Assembly: GCA_017615655.1 (NCBI GenBank)
Contig: JAFZZS010000002.1
Span: 195,114 to 259,113 of the forward strand
Reading direction: 5' to 3'
Source of the DNA: Alphaproteobacteria bacterium
GTDB lineage: Bacteria > Pseudomonadota > Alphaproteobacteria > Rs-D84
DNA: 64,000 bases
A model generated the notes under the pieces. The model did not search any database. It saw nothing but the letters and a program-made list of their open reading frames with translations, and was not told the origin of the DNA. The position numbers were made by a program, and so were the translations under genes. Positions 10,375 through 64,000 of this stretch are shown here, piece after piece. Each line of letters starts with the position of its first letter. The stretch's first letter is position 1.

Positions 10375-12738
10375 ATGAAAAAAGCAGTAGTTTCTATTGT
10401 TATGTGCGCATTTTGCGTAGGTTCTGCGTTGGCCGCGGTTCGCGGTTCTGACGTTGTTTTGCGTGTGCCAACGAATACCAGCAGAAGTTCGGAAAACGTT
10501 TCTTCGCGTGCGGCAACAACCAGTGTTGCGCCGCGTGCGGTTTTATCACGGTCTGGGGTCAATAATTTGCGGACCGTGTCTGGGCGTACAACAAAAACAA
10601 GGGTAATAAAATCTGCGCGAACGGCGAAGAATGTGACAAATCCGCGAGGCGCACTGATAAATGTTGATCAAACCAGTTCAGCACGTCCATCGCGCAGTGC
10701 TGTCAAGCAATCTAATGCACGCGCCGCGACAACAGACGTTAAGCCAAGTGTATTTGATGAAAATTATGAAGTGTGTCAAGTTGCGTACTTTACATGTATG
10801 GATCAATTTTGCGCATTACAGAATGAAACTTATCGCCGGTGTATTTGTTCATCAAAATTGGACAAGGTAAAATCGCGTGAGCGCGCACTATCACAAACAG
10901 CAGTTCAATTACAAGATTTCAAGGATTTGAATATAGATGCAATTCTTAAAACGCCTGCGGAAGTCAAAGCAATGTTGTCGGCAAGCGAAGGCGAACAAAA
11001 ACTGTCAATGATGCGCGATAATTCGAGTTCAATGAAGAAACTTAACGCAATAAGCGATGTTTTGGAAAATACGCGAAAAAATGCGGTTTCTACGGGGGGG
11101 CAATTAGACGTTGGGGGTGATATAAAACAAATATGGAATACTACAGATTTGATATCCGGGGCGAATATTGCAAATTTGACGGGTGAATCTTTGTATAACG
11201 CTGTACATTCGCAATGTGCCGAATTGGTCGCAGATCAATGTTCGTCACAAACCGCATTACAGATGGTTATGGCAGCGTACGGCATGTATATTGAAAATGA
11301 TTGTGCAACGTTATTATCTGCACTTGATAAACAGGCAAACAGTGCTAATACCGCAATTCGCCAAACAAATCGAGAGATGACAACTGCGCGTTTGGAAAAC
11401 TATAATGCGCATAATTCAGCGGCAATAAATGAATGTGTCGCGGGCGTACGTGAAAAATTAACTGAAGATACAGCATGTGGTGCGAATTATGTCCATTGTC
11501 TTGATTTGACGGGTCGTTACTTGAATAGGGTAACGGGCGAACCAATATATACAGCCAATTTTTATGAATTAAATGATCAGGTTTCTCTGGTTGGTGATGT
11601 GTTAACGAATACAACAAATGCAAAACTTGTTAATGAATTGAACCGCAAGCGTGAGATTGCGAAAAATGTGCTTGAAACATGTCGGGATATTGCAGATGAT
11701 GTGTGGAATGAATTCATGCGTCAGGCGATAACTGAAATTTACCAGGGTCAACAGTCCAGAATTCGCAAGGTCAAAAATGAATGCATGGATGTTGTTAATA
11801 AATGCTATGATGATACAGTAGGTCAATTGCGTGATTATAGTAATATTGAAGAACAAATGTTACTTGGGGATAGATTAGAGTTGTCCGAAGAAATGTGCAC
11901 AGAAAAAATGACAACCTGCAGCAATTTATATGGTGGGGGATCGGCAGGTTTACAATTGTTAATTGAAGAAATGCGCAGAATTACCGATCAAAAGATTTCG
12001 CAGAATTGCCTTGCGACATTAAAAGAATATTCCGAAAAATTATGTCGGGTTTCCGGATCTGATACTTTACATGCGTATCCGTATGGATGCCGCGTTTATA
12101 CGCCTGGAAATATATTCTATGCGACCAAACCTGAGTGTACGTACATAAACAATCCGACATACAGTGTGTCAAGTTTTGAACATGTTGCGCCTACTTCGCT
12201 GGGCAGTGTCAAGGTGTTAGGGACACAAACAGTTGTAAATGATCAAACCTTTTTGAATACTTATGCATGTTGGGATAACAGAATTTATTCAAGCTGTAAT
12301 GATGATTATTATTTGTGGGGTGGTAAATGTTATAAATGCCCAGAAGATTGGATATGTCAGGATGGTCAAATAAGGCCACAAAGTGTTGGGGGTGATACTT
12401 GTGGAAATTACATTGGTAGTCTATATCAGAAAATGGTTGTCTATGCATTGCAGTATTGTGTGCGTCCGTCCGAGGCTAATAATGCAATTCCAAACGAGGT
12501 TTTGGGGTACGTGAACATGACTATGGATTCTATACACGTGGATATGGCGTCTGCTTTGGCCCAGGAATGTGATAGACTTGGTGGGGAATGGGTAACAGAT
12601 TTCAAAAAGGTAGATGAAGATACTTGTGAACCCGAAGTCGACACCAAAAATTCAGATTTCTATAATCTGAGTAATGCGAATTTATGCTGGGGATTATGCA
12701 AAGAGAAAACGACAGACCAGGGCACAAACGGAGATTAA
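10375..12738 (+). CDS. Large secreted cysteine-rich protein, paralogue 1 (787 aa) of the CMDxFC family
   Basis: Signal peptide, then a Ser/Thr/Arg-rich low-complexity linker, then the conserved CQVAYFTCMDQFC...CICS core. More than 40 Cys. Colinear similarity to P2, P3 and P4 (for example CLDLTGRYLN and ETCRDIADDVWNEF blocks). Confidence 0.8.
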   Translation: MKKAVVSIVMCAFCVGSALAAVRGSDVVLRVPTNTSRSSENVSSRAATTSVAPRAVLSRSGVNNLRTVSGRTTKTRVIKSARTAKNVTNPRGALINVDQTSSARPSRSAVKQSNARAATTDVKPSVFDENYEVCQVAYFTCMDQFCALQNETYRRCICSSKLDKVKSRERALSQTAVQLQDFKDLNIDAILKTPAEVKAMLSASEGEQKLSMMRDNSSSMKKLNAISDVLENTRKNAVSTGGQLDVGGDIKQIWNTTDLISGANIANLTGESLYNAVHSQCAELVADQCSSQTALQMVMAAYGMYIENDCATLLSALDKQANSANTAIRQTNREMTTARLENYNAHNSAAINECVAGVREKLTEDTACGANYVHCLDLTGRYLNRVTGEPIYTANFYELNDQVSLVGDVLTNTTNAKLVNELNRKREIAKNVLETCRDIADDVWNEFMRQAITEIYQGQQSRIRKVKNECMDVVNKCYDDTVGQLRDYSNIEEQMLLGDRLELSEEMCTEKMTTCSNLYGGGSAGLQLLIEEMRRITDQKISQNCLATLKEYSEKLCRVSGSDTLHAYPYGCRVYTPGNIFYATKPECTYINNPTYSVSSFEHVAPTSLGSVKVLGTQTVVNDQTFLNTYACWDNRIYSSCNDDYYLWGGKCYKCPEDWICQDGQIRPQSVGGDTCGNYIGSLYQKMVVYALQYCVRPSEANNAIPNEVLGYVNMTMDSIHVDMASALAQECDRLGGEWVTDFKKVDEDTCEPEVDTKNSDFYNLSNANLCWGLCKEKTTDQGTNGD

Positions 12739-13150: not shown

Positions 13151-15298
13151 ATGAAAAAGATTCTTTTTGTCGGCCTGTTGGCTGTGATTCCATGTGTGGC
13201 ATTTACGGCGGAACGTGGTGGATCGCGCGTTGGTATTCGTGCATCTATGTCGTCGATGACGCCTGCGCCCAAGGTGCAAAGTATGCCAAAAGCAAAAGTG
13301 ACATCGAATGCGACATCAACGGTTAGCGCATCGGCACCTGTGGCTTCGCAACCCGAAGTTATTACCACAGAATCAGCAGAAGTTATCACAGAGGTTACAG
13401 AAACAAAATTAACCGTAGAAGAATGTCGTGATGCATACCGTGAATGCATGGATGAATTTTGTTTGCTGGATGAAGCTGAAGGTGGGCGCTGTTCATGTTC
13501 CGATAATATCAAGCAATCTAAGAGTTTGATTCAAACAATTCAATCTATTCAACAAGAGGCGGAATTGCTTTATACTGAAGGTGTTGAAAAAGAACGTCTT
13601 GGGGCAAAAGCAAAGTTTGTTAAATTTGGTGAAAGCGACAAGGCAAAAAAGTCTTCGCGTGTGTCGGGTATAGATTTGGTTGCGTGGATAAATGGCACCA
13701 CAAGTCAGAGTTTGGCGGCTGATGATGACATTGGTGATAATCTTTATGCTATGGCGGCGGATTCGTGTGAATATGTGTTAAGCAGTTGCGATGAAAAGCG
13801 CGCAGAAATGGAAGAAAAACTGTATCAGCGTGAAGTGGTCAAAGATTGCAAGGCTTTTGATGTATATTTGGCAGAACAGAAGAATGCCGCGGAATCGAAT
13901 AAAAGGACGGCACAGGCCGCGGTTCGTTCAGCAAAGTTAGATATGTTAGGAACCACAGAAAAATACAATCGTGGTGAGTGTTTAATTGCATATCGTGCGT
14001 GTATTGCAGACAAAGGTGGCTGTGGTGTTAATTTTGAAAACTGTTTAGATGCGGAATTGTTGGCGCGTCGTTCTAATGCTTGTGAAAACGTGCTTGATCA
14101 ATGTATGTCTGTGAAGACATATGTTTTGGAAGATTGGGAGGCGGAATCTAAAATGGTTCTTGCCGAAGCCGCAATTTACAGTGATAAAAATATGCGTTTA
14201 ACGTGTCTTGCACAAATTCAAGCATGTTTGGAAGACGGGTGCAGTACCTCTACGAATTCGGCGTGTTTGACAAACGTCCGGGTCGCTGCGGGTGTTTGCC
14301 CGATTATAACCGAATGTGAAGCTAAAATCCCGGGAATTCAAAGTGCAATTAATGACAAGTTGGCAGAATTGCGGACGCGTTTTTGTCAAAATGATGTTGA
14401 TAAATGTTTGCAAGATAAATGCGGTGTCAATTTTACTGCGCCAGAATGTGTTGGTAAGAAAACATCAGAAATTGTCGCGATGTGTCCTCAGGCTATGTTC
14501 GCGTCGTGTAAAAATGAAAAGTTTTTTGGTGTAATTGTTCAATCAACATTGTTGCAGATGGACTATCAAATGCTTGAAGGGTGTAAGAATTATTATGCCG
14601 ATGCATTGGGTAAGGTATGTGGAACAGATATGAATTGTTTGCCGGGCAGTACGGTGGTTGAGTCTTTAACAAAAACACCGGTCAGTGTTGGTGATGTTGA
14701 GGACGAAGTTCGTGCAGAAAGTAAGGCCGCGGTTAATGAATTCTTTAAACGTTTTGAAACCGAACAAACGGTTGCGGCATGTAAAAGTTCACAACAGCCT
14801 GTGGGATCTGGACGCAAGAGTTTAAAAGATGCAATGTTTACTTTCACCAAACAGGCGGCAGAAATTGCGGCTCAAAACCGTTATTTGACCGATTTGCGTT
14901 CAAAATTGGCGGAACTTTCGCGCAAGGACGATACGGCCAAGGCGGAACAAAATTGTTATGAACAATATAAAGTTGAAAAGAAGCCTGTAACCGATGATAG
15001 CGGATCTTATACGTATATTCGCAGCGTATCGTTTGAACCGTCATTGCGTAATTGTCATGTGTGTCGTATGCAACGTGTTTGCGAAGTGGGTGGCGAATCT
15101 AAAGCAACTTCCGCATTAAAAGCGGGTGCCGGTGGTTTGGCTGCGGGTGCGTCTGCAGGAACGATGATAAATGCAGGATGGGGAACCGCAATTGGTGCCG
15201 TTGTTGGTGGTGTCGGTGCCGGTGTACTGGGTGCGGTTTCGGGTGGCGAAAAAGAGTTCTGCCAAGAAATAGAATCTTGTGAAGATATAAATATGTAA
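13151..15298 (+). CDS. Large secreted cysteine-rich protein, paralogue 2 (715 aa) of the CMDxFC family
   Basis: Signal peptide, S/T/A/V-rich linker, then the EECRDAYRECMDEFC...CSCS core. A Gly/Ala-rich glycine-zipper-like tract (AGAGGLAAGASAG...GGVGAGVLGAVSGG) lies near the C-terminus, which ends ...CQEIESCEDINM. Confidence 0.8.
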   Translation: MKKILFVGLLAVIPCVAFTAERGGSRVGIRASMSSMTPAPKVQSMPKAKVTSNATSTVSASAPVASQPEVITTESAEVITEVTETKLTVEECRDAYRECMDEFCLLDEAEGGRCSCSDNIKQSKSLIQTIQSIQQEAELLYTEGVEKERLGAKAKFVKFGESDKAKKSSRVSGIDLVAWINGTTSQSLAADDDIGDNLYAMAADSCEYVLSSCDEKRAEMEEKLYQREVVKDCKAFDVYLAEQKNAAESNKRTAQAAVRSAKLDMLGTTEKYNRGECLIAYRACIADKGGCGVNFENCLDAELLARRSNACENVLDQCMSVKTYVLEDWEAESKMVLAEAAIYSDKNMRLTCLAQIQACLEDGCSTSTNSACLTNVRVAAGVCPIITECEAKIPGIQSAINDKLAELRTRFCQNDVDKCLQDKCGVNFTAPECVGKKTSEIVAMCPQAMFASCKNEKFFGVIVQSTLLQMDYQMLEGCKNYYADALGKVCGTDMNCLPGSTVVESLTKTPVSVGDVEDEVRAESKAAVNEFFKRFETEQTVAACKSSQQPVGSGRKSLKDAMFTFTKQAAEIAAQNRYLTDLRSKLAELSRKDDTAKAEQNCYEQYKVEKKPVTDDSGSYTYIRSVSFEPSLRNCHVCRMQRVCEVGGESKATSALKAGAGGLAAGASAGTMINAGWGTAIGAVVGGVGAGVLGAVSGGEKEFCQEIESCEDINM

Positions 15299-15308
15299 GG
15301 TTTTGATA

Positions 15309-17810
15309 ATGAAAAGAATCAAATATATTGCATTGATTACGGCTGTCGTTGCGCCATGTATCGCGTTGGCAGCAACAACCAAGAAACAGTCCGCAGTACA
15401 AAATGGAACTACTGTTCGTACTAAAGTTGCCGCCAAAGGTGTTTATTCTCAGGAATGTTACGATGAATACTACGGATGTATGGACCAGTTCTGTATTTCA
15501 GAAAATATCAATGGCGGTAGCTGCGCATGCAGTAACAAATCTATACAATACGAAGAAGAGTTAAAAGAGATAAATTCAATACTTGCAGAAGCAGATAGAA
15601 TCAAAACAGTAGAAGTTGAAAAGGTAAAACTTGGGGCAAACGCTGATATCGTTTTTAATGGTGAAAGAAAATATGACGAGAAGGGTAATGTTATAAGGGT
15701 ATCATCAAATTCTGATAGACCGAACAAAACTTCAAAACGTGAAGATTTGCTTAAGATGTTCGAAACAAATTTTGATGATGACGATGATGACGACGACGAT
15801 GTTATGAATAAAAGGGGCGCGGCGTTATTTAATGCGGCAAATGCGACATGTTCCAGTCAAGTTGATAGCTCTTGTGCAAAAGATTTAAAGATTTTAACCC
15901 AGATGTATCAGCGTCAAATTGAATCAGATTGTCAGGGGTTTGCAAATAGTATTGCACAACAAAAAGCCGCAGCGCAATCTGCAATGAATAGCGCGGAATC
16001 TGATGTTAGAACAGCATTAAAGGAAAGTTTTGATGCTGCGAACAAATACAACCAGGGCGAATGCATGGTTGAATTTAAAAAATGTATGACTGGTCCAGAT
16101 GCGTGTGGAACTGATTGGATAAATTGTGTTTCAACGATTGCGTCTGAGAATATGCAGAACAAGGCTGCAAAAAGTACGGCGGGAACAAAAACAAAGACAA
16201 CTGTTGCATATGACATAACACCGTCTGTTATGGAACGTTTGGAATCTAAACGAACTATTTGTGAACGCGTTCTGGATCAGTGTATGGCAGTACGTGATAC
16301 GGTTTGGACGGCATTTTTGCGAGAGGCGGCGCCAACACTTAAACTTGCGGAATTGCGCGCTGAATCAGATTTTCGTCAGTCTTGTTTAACAGAGATTACC
16401 AAGTGTATTCATACCGCGTGTAAAGATGATATTGCGGGCAAAGGTGTTGCAACAATGGATTCTTGTTTATCAAGGCCTGATATGGCACGTTCATTCTGCA
16501 AGGTTCAGATTGACCCTTGTGAACGCATGGAGCCATTAATTTGGGGATATGTTACAGACAAGTTAGCGGCGATGCGTGTCGATGCTTGTACCCAGGAAGT
16601 TAAAGATTGCTTTATGGATGATAATCGTTGTGGCAAAGACTTTATGAATTGTATAGGTATGGATTATGAATTTATACGAAATATATGTCCGTTGGATAAA
16701 TTGGTTGTTTGCAAGAAAAACAACAAGAATTTCAGTATGGCGGATATAGATTCTATGATTTCGGGACTGTATTTAAATATTGATAACAAGGCATTAGATA
16801 ATTGTCAAAAGATTGTCGAAGACAAAATGACCGAAGTTTGTGGTTCAACAACAGATTGTAATAAGTTTGCTGCTGATGACATAATGGGTACTAGCAGTTT
16901 ACGCAGCCAAAAAGATAAGAATATATATCGTATAACAGGGATGATATCGTTTGGTGTGTTACCAATTGCGACCTCGGGTGAAGATGTCGGCAAAATAGAT
17001 ATCACTGATTACATGTCAAAGGTGCGTGCAAATGCTGAAACGCAGGATGTGCCGAACAAGGATATGGTATTGGAAAATATCGAAACAGAATTAAAGAATG
17101 TTGCAAATAATATTAACCGTGTAATTGATTTAATTTCATCTGATACGAAGATACAATATTGTGTAACAGGGCGTAATCTTGCTCAAATTGTTGGGGAAAA
17201 AGATGCTCGTACAACCAAGGCACGTTTTCCAAATCTTTTGAATCAAATTAAAATTCAGATTGCAATGGCGGCGTTACGTAAAGCTCAGGATAATTATCAA
17301 GCCAAATATAATGAATATTTAGTTAAGGCGACAAAAGACGCGTCTGCGGATGTTGCGCAATATATGTGTCAGATGTTACCAGTTACAGGTGGTGCACCAG
17401 TTGGTGCGACAGGTGAAGAACAAACACAACTTGCCCCGCCGTATGCGATAAGTTACGAGGTTAGTACCGGATTAAATAACACATTGTTGTCGCAGGGGGG
17501 ACATGGGTCCTCTGCAACAGGAACAAGTGCAAAGGTTGATACTACTGCGGGTGCATCAAAGTTTGCGGGCGTTGTTGATGCGTTTACCGGGCTTGCTGGT
17601 CAAAAGGTAAAATCTGAAACCGGCAATGGAACGCGTGAAATGTGGTCTATATTTAATCGTGATACACGTATATGTCATTTCTGTACATCAACTGTGACAA
17701 AGAGCTGTTCAACTATTACAAAGAAGGGATTCCTTGGCATTGGATCCAAAGCCGAAGCGTCATGTACAGAATCTGATCCAGTTGAAAAGTGTGAAGATAT
17801 TGAAATGTAA
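15309..17810 (+). CDS. Large secreted cysteine-rich protein, paralogue 3 (about 833 aa) of the CMDxFC family
   Basis: Signal peptide, then the QECYDEYYGCMDQFC...CACS core. Poly-Asp run of 9 D followed by DV at 15773-15799. Colinear with P2. Ends ...EKCEDIEM. The ATG at 15309 is preferred over the TTG at 15303. Confidence 0.8.
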   Translation: MKRIKYIALITAVVAPCIALAATTKKQSAVQNGTTVRTKVAAKGVYSQECYDEYYGCMDQFCISENINGGSCACSNKSIQYEEELKEINSILAEADRIKTVEVEKVKLGANADIVFNGERKYDEKGNVIRVSSNSDRPNKTSKREDLLKMFETNFDDDDDDDDDVMNKRGAALFNAANATCSSQVDSSCAKDLKILTQMYQRQIESDCQGFANSIAQQKAAAQSAMNSAESDVRTALKESFDAANKYNQGECMVEFKKCMTGPDACGTDWINCVSTIASENMQNKAAKSTAGTKTKTTVAYDITPSVMERLESKRTICERVLDQCMAVRDTVWTAFLREAAPTLKLAELRAESDFRQSCLTEITKCIHTACKDDIAGKGVATMDSCLSRPDMARSFCKVQIDPCERMEPLIWGYVTDKLAAMRVDACTQEVKDCFMDDNRCGKDFMNCIGMDYEFIRNICPLDKLVVCKKNNKNFSMADIDSMISGLYLNIDNKALDNCQKIVEDKMTEVCGSTTDCNKFAADDIMGTSSLRSQKDKNIYRITGMISFGVLPIATSGEDVGKIDITDYMSKVRANAETQDVPNKDMVLENIETELKNVANNINRVIDLISSDTKIQYCVTGRNLAQIVGEKDARTTKARFPNLLNQIKIQIAMAALRKAQDNYQAKYNEYLVKATKDASADVAQYMCQMLPVTGGAPVGATGEEQTQLAPPYAISYEVSTGLNNTLLSQGGHGSSATGTSAKVDTTAGASKFAGVVDAFTGLAGQKVKSETGNGTREMWSIFNRDTRICHFCTSTVTKSCSTITKKGFLGIGSKAEASCTESDPVEKCEDIEM

Positions 17811-59224: not shown

Positions 59225-59764
59225 TTAAAAAACATATCTGATTTTAATTCTTGCATCATAGTGCAATAAATCGGGTTTATCATCGCCGACCTTGGCAATA
59301 TCAGGAATATAAAGTGCGCGTCCTTCGACATCGAATTTGAATGGCAACGCAGGCACGCTAAATGTTACACCAAGCATTCCTTGGTATGCGGCGGATGTAT
59401 CTAAATCAATATGGGTTTTATCATTTTCACCATTAAACATTGCGCCAACGCCAAGTCCAAAATATGGTTTAACAACAGTTGATGTCATTTTGAAATATGC
59501 GTTTAACATTGCTAAATTAGCATGAGAATCAGATTCATTAATGTAATTATATTCTGCCTCGATACGAAAGACCGGTAAATCAAGTCCGAACATCGCGCCG
59601 AATGATTGTGCAGAATTAGTTTCGTCCTTGTCATCAATAAATACAGTTTGTCCCCCGGCACCAACGAAAACCCCCGCGTATAAGTCCCATACAGGATTAG
59701 CAATTGCTGGGGCAGATGTTGCGGTAATTAAAGAACATAAAATAATTGACGTTTTTAACTTCAT
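59225..59764 (-). CDS. Small outer-membrane beta-barrel protein (OmpW/OmpA-like porin family)
   Basis: Signal peptide (MKLKTSIILCSLITATSAPAIA), alternating amphipathic beta-strands and a C-terminal aromatic residue (RYVF). AAGGAG RBS before ATG 59764. Confidence 0.65.
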   Translation of the reverse strand: MKLKTSIILCSLITATSAPAIANPVWDLYAGVFVGAGGQTVFIDDKDETNSAQSFGAMFGLDLPVFRIEAEYNYINESDSHANLAMLNAYFKMTSTVVKPYFGLGVGAMFNGENDKTHIDLDTSAAYQGMLGVTFSVPALPFKFDVEGRALYIPDIAKVGDDKPDLLHYDARIKIRYVF

Positions 59765-59810
59765 CTTTATCTCCTTTGTGTGATAATATAATATAAAAAG
59801 AGAGTTATAT

Positions 59811-60335
59811 ATGCAAGAAAATAAACCGATTTTAATTGTTGGACTTGGCAATCCCGGGACGGAATATGCCCGTACACGTCATAATGTTGGATTTATGGCG
59901 GTTCAGTATTTGGCTGGCAATGATGCTACATGGAAAAGCGAACATTTTGCAAAAACATCCGCGGTAAATATAGATGGCCATCGTATTATCTTTGCAATGC
60001 CACAAACATTCATGAATGACAGTGGTCGCGCAGTTCGTGCGATAATGGGTTTCTATAAGATACCTGTTGAAAATCTTGTTGTGATACATGATGATATGGA
60101 TTTAAAAACTGGGGATGTTCGAACCAAGGTTGGTGGTGGCAGTGCGGGGCACAACGGTATAAAATCGATTGATGCAAATGTTGGTCGTGAATATTTGCGA
60201 ATTCGAATCGGTATTGATCATCCGCGTAATTTTGGGTTGTCTATGGATCCAGCCGATTGGGTTTTGGGTAAATTTACTGATGAACAATTATCAATAATCC
60301 AAGATACAATCAAGAATATAAACTATAATATGTAA
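59811..60335 (+). CDS. pth: Peptidyl-tRNA hydrolase
   Basis: ILIVGLGNPG..Y..TRHNVGF...HNG signature; 174 aa. Confidence 0.9.
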   Translation: MQENKPILIVGLGNPGTEYARTRHNVGFMAVQYLAGNDATWKSEHFAKTSAVNIDGHRIIFAMPQTFMNDSGRAVRAIMGFYKIPVENLVVIHDDMDLKTGDVRTKVGGGSAGHNGIKSIDANVGREYLRIRIGIDHPRNFGLSMDPADWVLGKFTDEQLSIIQDTIKNINYNM

Positions 60336-60340
60336 GTTTT

Positions 60341-61321
60341 TTACATCGGACTCCAACCGCCACCGGCAATACTGCTTATAGATTTACAATTTGTTCCATC
60401 GCCATCACATATTTGCGCATTAGCACTATATTGACACGCTTGGGCAGTGGTTGACCCTGCTGGTGATGTCGTACCACGTGGACATTGTGTCGGAACACAA
60501 TTTGGCATACTGTTCAGGTTCTGGGCATTCCACGTACACTGTTGCGTCAAATATGTTCCAGCGGGGCTCTGGTCGCATTGACATACAACTACACTGGCCC
60601 CCGCAGGTGGCGTACAATCGGTGTTTGGCGCGTTATTTGGTATGTATCCATTATCACAACTTGTACAGTAATAAGAACCGACAGAAAAACTAATAGACCC
60701 ACCCCCCAGGGTAGTAGGACCGTTTGGACCGGTTGCAGTGTAACGTTCTGTTGCGGTACAGTGTTCACTTGCCATAGATTGGTTAGTCTGATCGTAATAA
60801 CAGTTCAATACATTCCAATATCTGTGGGTTTCGTCCCATTGCGCCTGACCACTATATGTTGTAACCCATGAAGAACAGGCCGCTGTATTCGATTCACATG
60901 AATAATTGGTACCCCCCTCATAATGATAATTAGTTGGGGCACTGCCAAATGTATTACCGTTGATAGTTAATAATTCTGGATTGTTATCATTATATCTGAC
61001 CGCCGCACCTGTTTCCCCACAAGTTACACTTGCATAACAATCATCAATACTTTCTGTGCCAAGAAAACTGTTGTTAAATTGTGCAGGACAATTACATTTT
61101 CCATCCGAACTGCCACATCCTGCATCTTGAGGTGGACAATAATAACCATGATCACCACTTGTTTGAGGACATTTATTACAATTAGTTCCATCAAAATAAC
61201 ACCCCGCTTCGTCTATGCAACCTTGTGAATTGTTTGTTTGATTAAAACCGCCACAAAGGGTGGCGTCAGCGCTTGCAACTAGTGGTATAAACAATGAAAT
61301 TAATAAAAGAAACATCCTCAT
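60341..61321 (-). CDS. Secreted cysteine-rich protein (326 aa) resembling the C-terminal module of the large CMDxFC-family proteins
   Basis: Signal peptide and ~40 Cys in CxxC/CxC spacing (GCYFDGTNCNKCPQTSGDHGYYCPP). Compare P1 CNDDYYLWGGKCYKCPEDWIC and the C-terminal third of P4. Confidence 0.65.
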   Translation of the reverse strand: MRMFLLLISLFIPLVASADATLCGGFNQTNNSQGCIDEAGCYFDGTNCNKCPQTSGDHGYYCPPQDAGCGSSDGKCNCPAQFNNSFLGTESIDDCYASVTCGETGAAVRYNDNNPELLTINGNTFGSAPTNYHYEGGTNYSCESNTAACSSWVTTYSGQAQWDETHRYWNVLNCYYDQTNQSMASEHCTATERYTATGPNGPTTLGGGSISFSVGSYYCTSCDNGYIPNNAPNTDCTPPAGASVVVCQCDQSPAGTYLTQQCTWNAQNLNSMPNCVPTQCPRGTTSPAGSTTAQACQYSANAQICDGDGTNCKSISSIAGGGWSPM

Positions 61322-61412
61322 GCTCTAGAATTTAGCAAATTGTTTTGCGGGTTTCAATAATAAAAAGGCGAGATCGCCTTTTTATATTTGTTATTTTATG
61401 ACAATCAATAAT

Positions 61413-61922
61413 TTACCTGGTTTTATCTGGAAATACAAATCTGCATCCTTGTTTTTCAAACCACTCTTTGTCATAAGGTGTGATTCCTACCTCTTGTTGT
61501 CCCCAATCATGACCGGGTGCATTCGCATAAAGTACATAAAAACTGCCAGAAAGCTTTACTTTTGTTGAATCAATATTAATACGGGTTTGCAGGCTATCAC
61601 GTGCTTGATGAAATGCCCCAGGGTAAAAACCGCTGCAATTTATTGGAAAACCGACACCATCATTACCAATTAAACTTATCGTTACAAATTTTACACTATC
61701 CTGATCCGTATAATATTTGACTGTATCTTTCGGTGGGGCGCGTCCGACCCCAGCATCCCAGTTCCAAAGAATAGTAATCTCTTTTGTTGGAATTATTGGG
61801 GTCGGACCAGGGTCTGGCGTTGGAATTGGATCTTTGTTGCACGCATTCGCCAATGCCATAAGACCGGTTAATGTCAGAATTTTACCTAATTTATACGGGA
61901 TCTTTTTCTTCATAAGTTTCAT
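61413..61922 (-). CDS. Lipoprotein with a Pro-rich linker (169 aa)
   Basis: Lipobox LANAC, then PIPTPDPGPTPIIP, then a beta-rich domain. Lies between two Cys-rich family genes on the same strand. Confidence 0.55.
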   Translation of the reverse strand: MKLMKKKIPYKLGKILTLTGLMALANACNKDPIPTPDPGPTPIIPTKEITILWNWDAGVGRAPPKDTVKYYTDQDSVKFVTISLIGNDGVGFPINCSGFYPGAFHQARDSLQTRINIDSTKVKLSGSFYVLYANAPGHDWGQQEVGITPYDKEWFEKQGCRFVFPDKTR

Positions 61923-62004
61923 AAAGAATCCTTTTGTTTGTCAATATGTATTATGTGCCAAAATATCAACTTTGTCAAGATTTTACGAGAGCCACAATTG
62001 ACCC

Positions 62005-64000
62005 TTAGTTACCGTATCGTATAAATCCACCACTAGTTGTATCCTGGGGCAGCGAATGTGTATTATTACCGCTGTTGTAATAAACGTGGTGTGGTGTATT
62101 GGCATCTATTGTTTGACTTGTGGGGGTTGAATATGTGTGCGAGTCCTTGTTAATTAACACAAATCTACCACCGGTGCATGTTATACTATCGCCACTGGTA
62201 TTGACGGTGCCACCAACACAAACTATATAATGGGTGCCATTTTTCATTACTGGATCTAAATTGGTATTTTGTGGCAGGCAGACATAAAATGCGTCATTGT
62301 CAATTGCCTCGGTTCGACCTGTTTCACAACATGGTCCATTGTTACTCATTGGTATATGCCCCCAGCTATTACTTTGTGCGTAACAACAATTTGTAATACC
62401 GCCAGGAACCGACATTTGTATGTTTGACGGGTTTGTATTGGTGGGGCAATACATCCCATCACTGGTCATATCACTTGGGCTGTAATTAAGTGGCATACAT
62501 ATTGCTGCCCCGTTTGCCCCTGTTGCGTATTCGCCAGACGAACAACGTGTGTTCACACAACTGCGTGAATCAGCAATAACGGTCGTTCCATTTACAGTTG
62601 CAGTTCCAGTATTGATCGCAAACCATGCCAACAATGTTGATTGTGGTGATGTTGGAATAAGTATTCGGTTGGTCCCCTTGTTTTGTGGGGTTTGTTCACA
62701 GTTACCCCAAATACGTTCAGCAATACGACATTTTGCGCATTCGGCGTCTGATACTGTATCATCACACGTGCACATATTCCAAATCGGATTTGGGTTTCGT
62801 GTATTATACATTTCATCATAGAATGCGTATTTATTGATGCCACTTTGTGGTTTATTCAATAGTTCAATAATTTTTATTAATGCGTCATCGCCCGCCGCAC
62901 CAACACATTCATTCAATTCGGGCCAGCATGATGTGCGTTCAAGAATTGCGTGACGATTCGCCGAAAAATCGATGTCATCGCACAAATCAAAGTTTCCAGA
63001 AATGGATTTGCACGCCTGAATAATGCAATTACGACCAACCTGAGTACAACTGGATATAATAGAATCATATGTTTTTTGGGTGGCAATATCTGTCATCCCG
63101 GTTTCCCACGTAATCGATTCGTTTTGCGTTTCTAAATCCATATCAATCAATTTTGCACAGGCGGTTTGGACGCTGGCACATATTGAATTTACCGTTCTGT
63201 CCGCAGAAACCCCAAATATTGAAAGTGCACGTGCATCAAACCCCTCGATTGTTTCAGCCGCCGATGTTAAACATTCGGTGGTTAATGTGGTGCATGCCTG
63301 ACGTACTTCTTCAAGTTTCGAAATTTGGGCCAATTTAATCTGTGCTAGTGCATCTTCAATAAAGGCATCCCATACAGAATCGGCAATGTCTTGACAATTT
63401 TCCATTGCAGATGCCAAATAGTTCTTTTTCCCGCGCAGGTATGTTAAAAATGGACTGGAACCATTGGCGGATGTCCACGTTTGGTTCACGCCAGGGCGTA
63501 TAATCAAGTCCGCCAAATCGGCCAGATTTACCGTTAAAAATGCGCTGCCTGTGGTGGGGTCAATATATTTACCGGTCATATCAAGGCAGTTTTGCAGGTT
63601 TTTACCACAGACGCTTTGATCGGTTAGCATATCTAACATTTTACGTTTACATGTTAACATGTCATCTGAATTGCGAGTCTGGTATGCATCAAGGCGCGAC
63701 ATATCTAATAGTGCGCTGCTTTCAAAAACCTTGGTTCGTGCGGCATCTACCTGGGTCTGATATGATTTGTATACCGTATTGCAATCTTGTTCCATTAACA
63801 TTTGATAGCCACTGATGGCAAGTGACAGTTCGTCTTCGGTGCAAACCTCAGTTGCAATTTCACGACATACTGGAATTGCCGCATTATACAGTGCCGGTCC
63901 AGATTTCGATGTTGTGTCGGAACCCATAAATGAATCAACAGTATCAAATGCAGAATCTATGTTTAATGACAATGACACCGGCGCCAGTGATCCACTGGAA
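62005..64000 (-). CDS. Large secreted cysteine-rich protein, paralogue 4 of the CMDxFC family (5' end beyond the window)
   Basis: Open reading frame from the window edge to the stop at 62005, with no in-frame stop. Colinear with P1 (CLDMTGKYIDPTTG vs CLDLTGRYLNRVTG; ENCQDIADSVWDAF vs ETCRDIADDVWNEF). Highly Cys-rich C-terminal third. Confidence 0.75.
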   Translation of the reverse strand, partial: SSGSLAPVSLSLNIDSAFDTVDSFMGSDTTSKSGPALYNAAIPVCREIATEVCTEDELSLAISGYQMLMEQDCNTVYKSYQTQVDAARTKVFESSALLDMSRLDAYQTRNSDDMLTCKRKMLDMLTDQSVCGKNLQNCLDMTGKYIDPTTGSAFLTVNLADLADLIIRPGVNQTWTSANGSSPFLTYLRGKKNYLASAMENCQDIADSVWDAFIEDALAQIKLAQISKLEEVRQACTTLTTECLTSAAETIEGFDARALSIFGVSADRTVNSICASVQTACAKLIDMDLETQNESITWETGMTDIATQKTYDSIISSCTQVGRNCIIQACKSISGNFDLCDDIDFSANRHAILERTSCWPELNECVGAAGDDALIKIIELLNKPQSGINKYAFYDEMYNTRNPNPIWNMCTCDDTVSDAECAKCRIAERIWGNCEQTPQNKGTNRILIPTSPQSTLLAWFAINTGTATVNGTTVIADSRSCVNTRCSSGEYATGANGAAICMPLNYSPSDMTSDGMYCPTNTNPSNIQMSVPGGITNCCYAQSNSWGHIPMSNNGPCCETGRTEAIDNDAFYVCLPQNTNLDPVMKNGTHYIVCVGGTVNTSGDSITCTGGRFVLINKDSHTYSTPTSQTIDANTPHHVYYNSGNNTHSLPQDTTSGGFIRYGN

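Follow-up and report, generated by a model that had tools for sequence, protein, structure and literature searches.

A conserved cysteine-rich envelope gene of Candidatus Enterousia beside a strain-variable island, apparently exchanged by recombination

Three neighbouring genes at one end of a 64,000-nucleotide stretch of alphaproteobacterial DNA (order Rs-D84; GenBank assembly GCA_017615655.1, contig JAFZZS010000002.1, positions 195,114 to 259,113 of the forward strand; hereafter, at its full length, the window) raise the question of how they belong together. These are P4, a long Cys-rich open reading frame (ORF) that is cut by the window edge, g2, an ORF of 169 amino acids (aa), and g3, an ORF of 326 aa. 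An earlier reading of the sequence (the original prediction) regarded them as an operon in which g3 is a stand-alone version of a C-terminal Cys-dense module common to P4 and to a further protein of the window, P1. The analysis described here leads to a different answer. As judged from sequence comparison between strains, the C-terminal beta-rich Cys module of P4, which we call the head, forms together with g2 and g3 a strain-variable island that is exchanged by recombination beside the conserved P4 core.

An ORF scan of positions 60341-64000 returned three ORFs, all on the minus strand, at the coordinates originally given, and the frame of P4 is open and stop-free over 664 codons up to the window edge, as had been anticipated. 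The missing part of P4 was recovered by an exact-protein look-up of g2, which led to a 19-kb ENA contig (L001; loci are numbered with an L throughout) that matches the final 8 kb of the window at 100% identity. Read from L001:3426-6236, the full P4 protein has 936 aa. The part past the window edge (approximately window-equivalent 64001-64815) comprises the start codon, a signal peptide (MKRIKLFFGVCLGMLAFHNVSAS), an R/T/S-rich disordered region of ~130 residues, and then CRQIYYECMDEFCATKDANLRRCACS / NYAGCRQIYYECMDEFCATKDANLRRCACS; the CMDEFC core also lies in this part. The presence of a CMDxFC core in the missing N-terminus had been predicted, and in the L001 sequence the family core indeed reads CRQIYYECMDEFC...RRCACS. 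This core (CxxxYxxCMDxFC...RCxCS) is invariant across 89 P4 orthologues. The features of the locus, from the window edge towards the downstream border, are the following; the structural description of P4 refers to an AlphaFold2 (AF2) model.

62644..64000, minus strand: conserved helical, Cys-stapled region of P4; the window covers residues 273-724 of 936.
62005..62643, minus strand: P4 head, residues ~725-936 and the stop codon; beta-rich in the AF2 model, with 11 Cys in the last 212 residues.
62008-62412, minus strand: exchangeable end of the P4 head, the last ~135 codons; set by a break in DNA identity at codon ~800 between L008 and L020.
61950..61978, minus strand: sigma-70-like promoter in the P4-g2 spacer, TTGACA-17-CATAAT, an 11/12 match to the consensus and a consensus match only.
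61413..61922, minus strand: g2, a 169-aa probable lipoprotein; the codon of Cys28 is at 61839-61841 (alignment of 38 homologues).
61360..61385, minus strand: hairpin resembling an intrinsic terminator for g2, with a counterpart in 18 of 22 related loci.
61329..61357, minus strand: weaker promoter-like site directly 5' of g3, TTGAAA-17-TAAATT with a TG, likewise a consensus match only.
60341..61321, minus strand: g3, a 326-aa secreted protein with 26 Cys; conserved C-terminal tail at ~60344-60448 (ORF and family alignments).
59811..60335, plus strand: pth, the gene of peptidyl-tRNA hydrolase (Pfam PF01195, E 1.8e-58), the conserved right border of the island.

The spacers between P4 and g2 and between g2 and g3 measure 82 and 91 nt, and the genes lie on one strand throughout. 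With 26 Cys (8.0%), g3 has the highest Cys content among the window ORFs of at least 150 aa. P4 has 5.0%; together with three other large ORFs it spans a range of 4.2-5.2%, and the window median is 1.2%. At the other end of the island, g3 and pth are convergent, with 5 nt separating their stop codons (window 60335-60341), so that neither gene can fit a terminator of its own outside the other.

The variability of the island first appears in its gene content. P4 and pth were found in synteny in 73 of 89 loci, and copy numbers of g2 and g3 were determined by hidden Markov models (HMMs) in 68 loci with the canonical P4-pth arrangement. P4 is present in all 68, including 19 that lack both g2 and g3. 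The remaining 49 loci are occupied, and g3 is always single-copy in them: 28 carry one g2, eight carry two and one carries four (37 with g2), while g3 stands alone in 12. The number of tandem g2 copies per locus thus ranges from 0 to 4, and g2 was never found without g3. Tandem duplications of g2, two- to threefold, were seen in L078 (L078:9816-11324), L042, L045, L050, L067 and L079; the N-termini of these copies are very similar and their mature parts have diverged. In L029, where the P4-pth gap is empty (74 nt), tblastn gave a weak g3-like stretch at E 3e-7 (L029:1651-2424, minus strand), which lies ~3.5 kb upstream of P4 on the other strand and was missed by the HMM scan of ORFs.

Comparison of closely related loci showed how the alleles differ. 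Between L005 and L011, pth is 99.4% identical, the P4 core 99.6% and the P4 head 97.7%, with g3 at 46%. A similar pattern was observed for L020 and L024 (pth 98.3%, P4 core 97.4%, P4 head 95.8%, g3 42%), and when L020, L023 and L024 were compared the flanks were 96-98% identical and g3 35-42%. Between L008 and L020 the divergence also takes in the head: pth 94.8%, P4 core 96.1%, P4 head 57.7% and g3 33%. Across strains whose flanks are 96-100% identical, alleles are only 35-46% identical. Sliding DNA identity changed in sharp steps within tens of bases and not in gradients. For L005 and L011, an identity of 93-100% extends into g2 and ends after ~90 nt of this gene, shortly behind the codons for signal peptide and lipobox; identity falls to ~40% over the inner block, which consists of the rest of g2 and g3, and 100% is regained over the last ~105 nt of g3, corresponding to 34 identical C-terminal residues. 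For L020 versus L024 and L020 versus L023, one step coincides with the beginning of g3 and the other lies ~60-130 nt ahead of its stop codon. For L008 versus L020 the left step falls within the P4 gene, near codon 800, so that the C-terminal ~135 residues of the head are exchanged together with g2 and g3. DNA identity is back at 98-100% at or just before pth. The breakpoints fall in conserved "handles", namely the signal peptide of g2, the C-terminal tail of g3 and the head of P4. Step-like identity at such handles points to allele replacement by recombination rather than to fast drift.

A search of the window for further or silent copies of g2, of g3 and of the P4 head found none, repeats flanking the island were limited to short matches at chance level, apart from the hairpin, and no recombinase genes or invertase were seen in the window region. 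In three independent assemblies (L005, L006 and L007) the same P0122 gene and the same gene order were found, with identical matches to the window proteins.

The g3 family was built from 48 positional homologues gathered from related loci, of which 42 were aligned. In the window, g3 begins with a signal peptide (MRMFLLLISLFIPLVASA), followed by the N-terminal motif C..C...GCY..C..CP, then a hypervariable body and the conserved C-terminal tail. Across the family the N-terminal motif reads C..C...GCYW...C..CPxGxYC, 10 Cys are invariant (n=42) and the tail has the form CQY...CDxxGC...W. The Pfam model Ephrin_rec_like (PF07699) is matched by 11 of the 42 members (best E 5.4e-8) and a TNFR-like model (PF23091, TNFR_ELAPOR1_6th) by three of 42. 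Compared with the Protein Data Bank (PDB), the family profile hit DR6 (4yn0) at E 2.9e-6 and EphB2 (7s7k) at E 2.9e-3. The g3 family may therefore weakly resemble the cysteine-rich domains (CRDs) of TNFR and ephrin receptors; since g3 of the window falls below the Pfam threshold, we infer this membership at the level of the family. In a word-indexed search, the lone g3 sequence returned two distant relatives and the 42-sequence profile 10 matches. An exhaustive HMMER search with a g3 profile against 1.84 billion representatives returned 74 proteins, nearly all of them stand-alone, 300-400 aa long and matched end to end. An apparent split of g3 into genes of 55 and 144 aa in L003 (L003:804-813) was traced to a run of N in the scaffold and is neither a frameshift nor a pseudogene.

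For g2, the original prediction of a lipoprotein between P4 and the 326-aa gene appears to hold. The protein has a signal peptide and Cys28, and this Cys is invariant in 38 homologues, where the residue at -1 is always A, G or S. The homologues share a basic N-terminus (often ...PYKLK...), a hydrophobic stretch and a C-terminal DSLW..GWTI motif, which in the window protein takes the related form DKEWFEKQGCRF. Tested against the pattern [LVI][ASTVI][GAS]C after the signal peptide, the lipobox of the window protein (A-N-A-C) is noncanonical, as its L is at -4 and not at the canonical -3; several relatives carry the canonical LAAC. No Pfam or NCBIfam model matched g2. Taken together, g2 is a probable bacterial lipoprotein.

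P4 itself appears to be composed of four parts. In the AF2 model, computed from 89 sequences, residues 1-149 are disordered, 147-720 form long helices and ~725-923 are beta-rich, with a predicted local distance difference test score (pLDDT) of ~90. The modelled protein thus consists of a Sec signal peptide, ~130 disordered R/T/S-rich residues, a helical Cys-stapled stalk and a beta-rich Cys head. The P4 family profile had no matches among PDB sequences. Pfam and NCBIfam scans of five Cys-rich or lipoprotein ORFs of the window matched no family, and 30 P4 orthologues scanned with Pfam yielded nothing above noise; one of the 30 had a sub-threshold hit (E 0.042) to the unrelated middle domain of chlamydial Pmp. 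A word-indexed search returned 842 P4 homologues, all of them "hypothetical proteins" from metagenome-assembled genomes (MAGs) of gut or rumen Alphaproteobacteria. When one genome per species was scanned, 486 loci encoded a P4 relative, and the best 80 of these 486 are labelled nearly all as Candidatus Enterousia, Alphaproteobacteria or "uncultured proteobacterium". Probable taxonomic mislabels with a P4-pth locus are L045 (CAVGNU010000008.1, "Bacteroides fragilis") and L074 (OZ246409.1, "uncultured Muribaculaceae bacterium", a 716-kb chromosome).

Three paralogues of P4 lie in tandem on the plus strand of the window, at 10375-12738 (787 aa), 13151-15298 (P1, 715 aa) and 15303-17810 (P2, 835 aa). 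Common to all P4 paralogues are a signal peptide, a disordered stretch rich in S and T, a CxxxYxxCMDxFC..RCxCS core and a Cys-stapled helical region. At the DNA level the window contains three occurrences of the CMDxFC pattern, one per paralogue ORF, compared with 0.01 expected by chance. In profile comparisons with hhalign, the 787-aa ORF is by far the closest to P4 (100% probability, E 1.4e-42; P4 148-581 aligned with 111-540), followed by P2 (98.9%, E 2.4e-17; P4 167-599 with 50-438) and P1 (96.8%, E 2.4e-10; P4 165-413 with 88-301); BLASTP of P4 against P1 gave E 3e-5 across 107 residues. The CMDxFC proteins are thus an uncharacterised family of four paralogues, lacking a Pfam model, in Ca. 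Enterousia (order Rs-D84). In all three cases the homology to P4 ends before its C-terminal part, at about P4 residue 413 for P1, 599 for P2 and 581 for the 787-aa protein. Each paralogue has a C-terminal part of its own. The last residues of P1 and P2 fit CEDI[NE]M (C(E/x)DI(N/E)M), and P4 closes with a different Cys-rich region; in P1 a Gly/Ala-rich hydrophobic stretch immediately precedes the CEDI[NE]M-type end. A profile of the P4 C-terminus matched no other window ORF at E<=1, P1 and P2 included. Because the alignments stop short and the head profile is unmatched, P1 and P4 do not have a C-terminal module in common. The colinearity of P4 and P1 that was originally proposed accordingly extends over core and stalk and not over the C-terminus, and of the proposed modular architecture there remains a conserved core with a helical region, followed by a C-terminal part that diverges. 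Among the four proteins, the beta-rich head and the downstream variable genes are found with P4 only.

The products of P4, g2 and g3 all carry export signals and are Cys-rich or lipobox-bearing, and the locus lies among outer-membrane genes. Our favoured reading, to which we give about an even chance of being correct, is that a conserved envelope gene, P4, is combined with a hypervariable, exchanged island that likely serves variable recognition at the cell surface. On this reading the secreted g3 protein is built from cysteine-rich repeats like those of TNFR and ephrin receptors. The variable parts (P4 head, g2 and g3) would be exported, disulfide-rich and exposed at the surface, where they may mediate recognition of, or attachment to, a partner cell, a host surface or a ligand. 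Immunity, phage or partner specificity would then exert a diversifying pressure that favours allele replacement via homologous recombination, and g2 might be an accessory of g3, perhaps as a membrane anchor or export helper. A more far-reaching form of this proposal is quite unlikely in our estimation: the CMDxFC stalk-head proteins and g3 would constitute an undescribed attachment or recognition apparatus of reduced-genome gut Rs-D84 bacteria that docks on a partner or host, with its specificity re-assorted by cassette exchange. Proteins of the g3 type would in that event bind host or partner ligands, and in the extreme case could be bacterial decoys of eukaryotic receptor-ligand systems.

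Several observations weigh against a role in surface recognition. The argument for exposure at the surface draws only on variability and Cys content. P4 carries a Sec signal but no recognisable surface-export or anchor domain, and its fold had no Foldseek match at E<=0.001 in PDB or BFVD. The g3 protein of the window has no Pfam match at E<=0.1, and its AF2 model, computed from a six-sequence alignment, reaches a pLDDT of 32. The pairs with near-identical flanks are relatives of the window's strain and not that strain itself, whose contigs all carry the same allele. Many of the compared sequences are MAGs, in which chimeric assembly is possible, although L005, L006 and L007 agree as independent assemblies. 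Finally, the identities of g2 and g3 covary weakly (Spearman 0.27), so a strict cognate pair is not claimed.

Of the alternatives, the one that survives best, though we consider it unlikely, is a structural role. P4, g2 and g3 could be periplasmic envelope proteins cross-linked by disulfides, like chlamydial OmcA and OmcB, and their divergence could reflect relaxed constraint in a reduced genome. The genes for a large Cys-rich protein, a small lipoprotein and another Cys-rich protein do lie beside genes for a Protochlamydia-type Pom porin and other outer membrane proteins (OMPs), and four Cys-rich paralogues are present in a genome of <1 Mb. On the other hand, no chlamydial Cys-rich envelope family was matched when P4, 30 of its orthologues, g2 and g3 were scanned with Pfam, and these genomes encode peptidoglycan synthases. 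Step-like allele replacement beside flanks of 98-100% identity is unlike drift, and g2 and g3 are dispensed with altogether in the 19 empty loci. The chlamydial omcA-omcB pair, a small Cys-rich lipoprotein and a 60-kDa Cys-rich envelope protein, is similar in that g2 adjoins genes for Cys-rich exported proteins with a Pom porin nearby; it differs in gene order and sizes, there is no detectable homology, and the island is dispensable and hypervariable.

It is very unlikely, in our view, that g3 is a polymorphic toxin or bacteriocin and g2 its cognate immunity lipoprotein, the two being exchanged as a pair for competition between strains. Lipoproteins are common as immunity proteins against toxins that act in the periplasm. 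The replacement of the mature part of g2 together with g3 between L005 and L011 would fit such a pair, as would the fact that g2 never occurs without g3. The distribution in the opposite direction does not, since g3 occurs without g2 in 12 of the 49 occupied loci and a toxin without immunity would harm its own producer; orphan immunity genes, which are usually common in such systems, are absent. Moreover, the putative immunity gene lies upstream and not downstream of the putative toxin gene, Pfam and NCBIfam scans revealed no toxin domain, g3 is variable along its whole body and not just at a C-terminal tip, and a cognate pair would hardly show the low Spearman coefficient given above.

This leaves the original prediction for g3, that it is a free-standing homologue of the Cys module at the C-termini of P4 and P1, one domain occurring both fused and on its own. 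The two regions do have features in common: both are exported and rich in Cys, Gly, Thr and Asn, both contain a CxxGxY hairpin motif, and g3 and the P4 head are both hypervariable and exchangeable together (L008 versus L020). BLASTP of g3 against P4 and against P1, however, gave no significant match. Aligned by hhalign, the 42-sequence g3 profile and the P4 profile reached a probability of 1.8% over 10 columns of the CxxGxY motif only (TSCDNG-YIP versus TRCSSGEYAT), and with the isolated alignment of the P4 C-terminus the probability was 0.2%. Searches with hmmsearch --max between g3 and the P4 C-terminus were empty at E<=10 in both directions, and among the 74 matches of the exhaustive g3 search there was no P4 orthologue. 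As a significant profile alignment had been set beforehand as the criterion and none was obtained, the idea that g3 is a P1/P4 tail encoded by a separate gene is refuted at the sequence level, and, with P1 and P2 ending differently and unmatched by the head profile, we regard a common origin of the two as extremely improbable. The likeness first perceived is probably best explained by shared Cys/Gly/Thr/Asn composition and one short hairpin motif. Overall, the observation behind the original prediction is confirmed in part, for the ORFs, the core and the probable lipoprotein, and its interpretation is supported in part, without the stand-alone module and the tail shared by P1 and P4.

The transcription signals listed above bear on whether the three genes form one unit. 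Promoter-like sites in this region are consensus matches only, and their regional number is not above the expectation from shuffled sequence. The hairpin in the g2-g3 spacer has the form AAAAGGCG-ATCT-CGCCTTTT and is followed by TATTATTG; a conserved TATTATTGAAA on its 3' side overlaps the -35 element of the promoter-like site of g3. In the 18 related loci with a counterpart, hairpin and T-run are at the same place, with stems that differ and are compensated (for example GGCG/CGCC, GGCA/TGCC, CGGCAT/ATGCCG and CCGACC/GGTCGG). Such compensatory changes make a good comparative case that the hairpin is functional, as a terminator or in processing. Given the promoter-like sites and the covarying hairpin, a single tricistronic P4-g2-g3 operon is not the most likely arrangement, and the retention of P4 in loci devoid of g2 and g3 adds to the doubt about the operon that had been proposed. 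The g2 and g3 genes are probably transcribed from promoters of their own.

Upstream of P4, a tRNA-Leu(AAG) gene lies at a distance of 72 nt (L001:3270-3354, plus strand, approximately window 64887-64971, minus strand). Several public gene calls place spurious extensions at the N-terminus of P4 orthologues (MGVQVPLSAP..., ...WGFKSPYPHH...), apparently translated through this tRNA gene. Past the tRNA and divergent from P4 (L001:66-3171, minus strand) are genes for a Pom-like porin (PF17251, "Protochlamydia outer membrane protein", E 1.5e-10), a 206-aa exported ORF and a DUF3078-like OMP; this three-gene envelope cluster was kept in all relatives inspected. Beyond the other border, a 208-aa ORF with a TTG start (59225-59851, minus strand) overlaps the start of pth. 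An internal ATG at 59764 (179 aa, MKLKTSIILCSL...) fits the public gene calls and the Pfam match to an OMP beta-barrel (OMP_b-brl), and a start at this position results in a divergent spacer of 46 nt to pth.

Candidatus Enterousia belongs to the order Rs-D84, whose members are widespread in gut and rumen; their genomes are <1 Mb, most biosynthetic pathways are lacking, and they are thought to depend on partner cells (PMC12306168). A literature search found no paper that links Rs-D84 with cysteine-rich proteins. The lineage-specific family of four paralogues, with neither a Pfam model nor a PDB fold match, is a candidate for the means by which these bacteria contact other cells, and the swapping of alleles between near-identical strains, seen next to one paralogue, is the pattern to be expected if a recognition surface is exposed. 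The present analysis also corrects the domain-shuffling account of g3 and the P4 tail, and the precise breakpoints and conserved handles may serve to type strains or to amplify alleles from metagenomes.

Two known systems are useful for comparison. The CRDs of TNFR and ephrin receptors are extracellular, disulfide-rich binding modules, and the CxxCPxGxY...C spacing of the g3 family is similar to theirs (PF07699, PF23091; 4yn0, 7s7k). In contrast to these receptors, g3 is bacterial, has a Sec signal peptide and lacks a transmembrane or kinase part, and it carries the family-specific motifs GCYW at the N-terminus and CDxxGC...W at the C-terminus. Variable surface-protein loci are the other point of reference. 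Giardia VSP-like Cys-rich antigens and the allele replacement of bacterial antigens or receptor-binding proteins involve homologous recombination at conserved flanks. The island differs from such loci in that its variation is between strains and that silent donor cassettes, an invertase or repeats were not seen in the window. It resembles them in that its handles flank a hypervariable, exported Cys-rich protein and that unrelated island alleles occur within near-identical backgrounds. Variable surface-protein loci are thus already known as a type; here, one that would be comparable is built from uncharacterised protein families.

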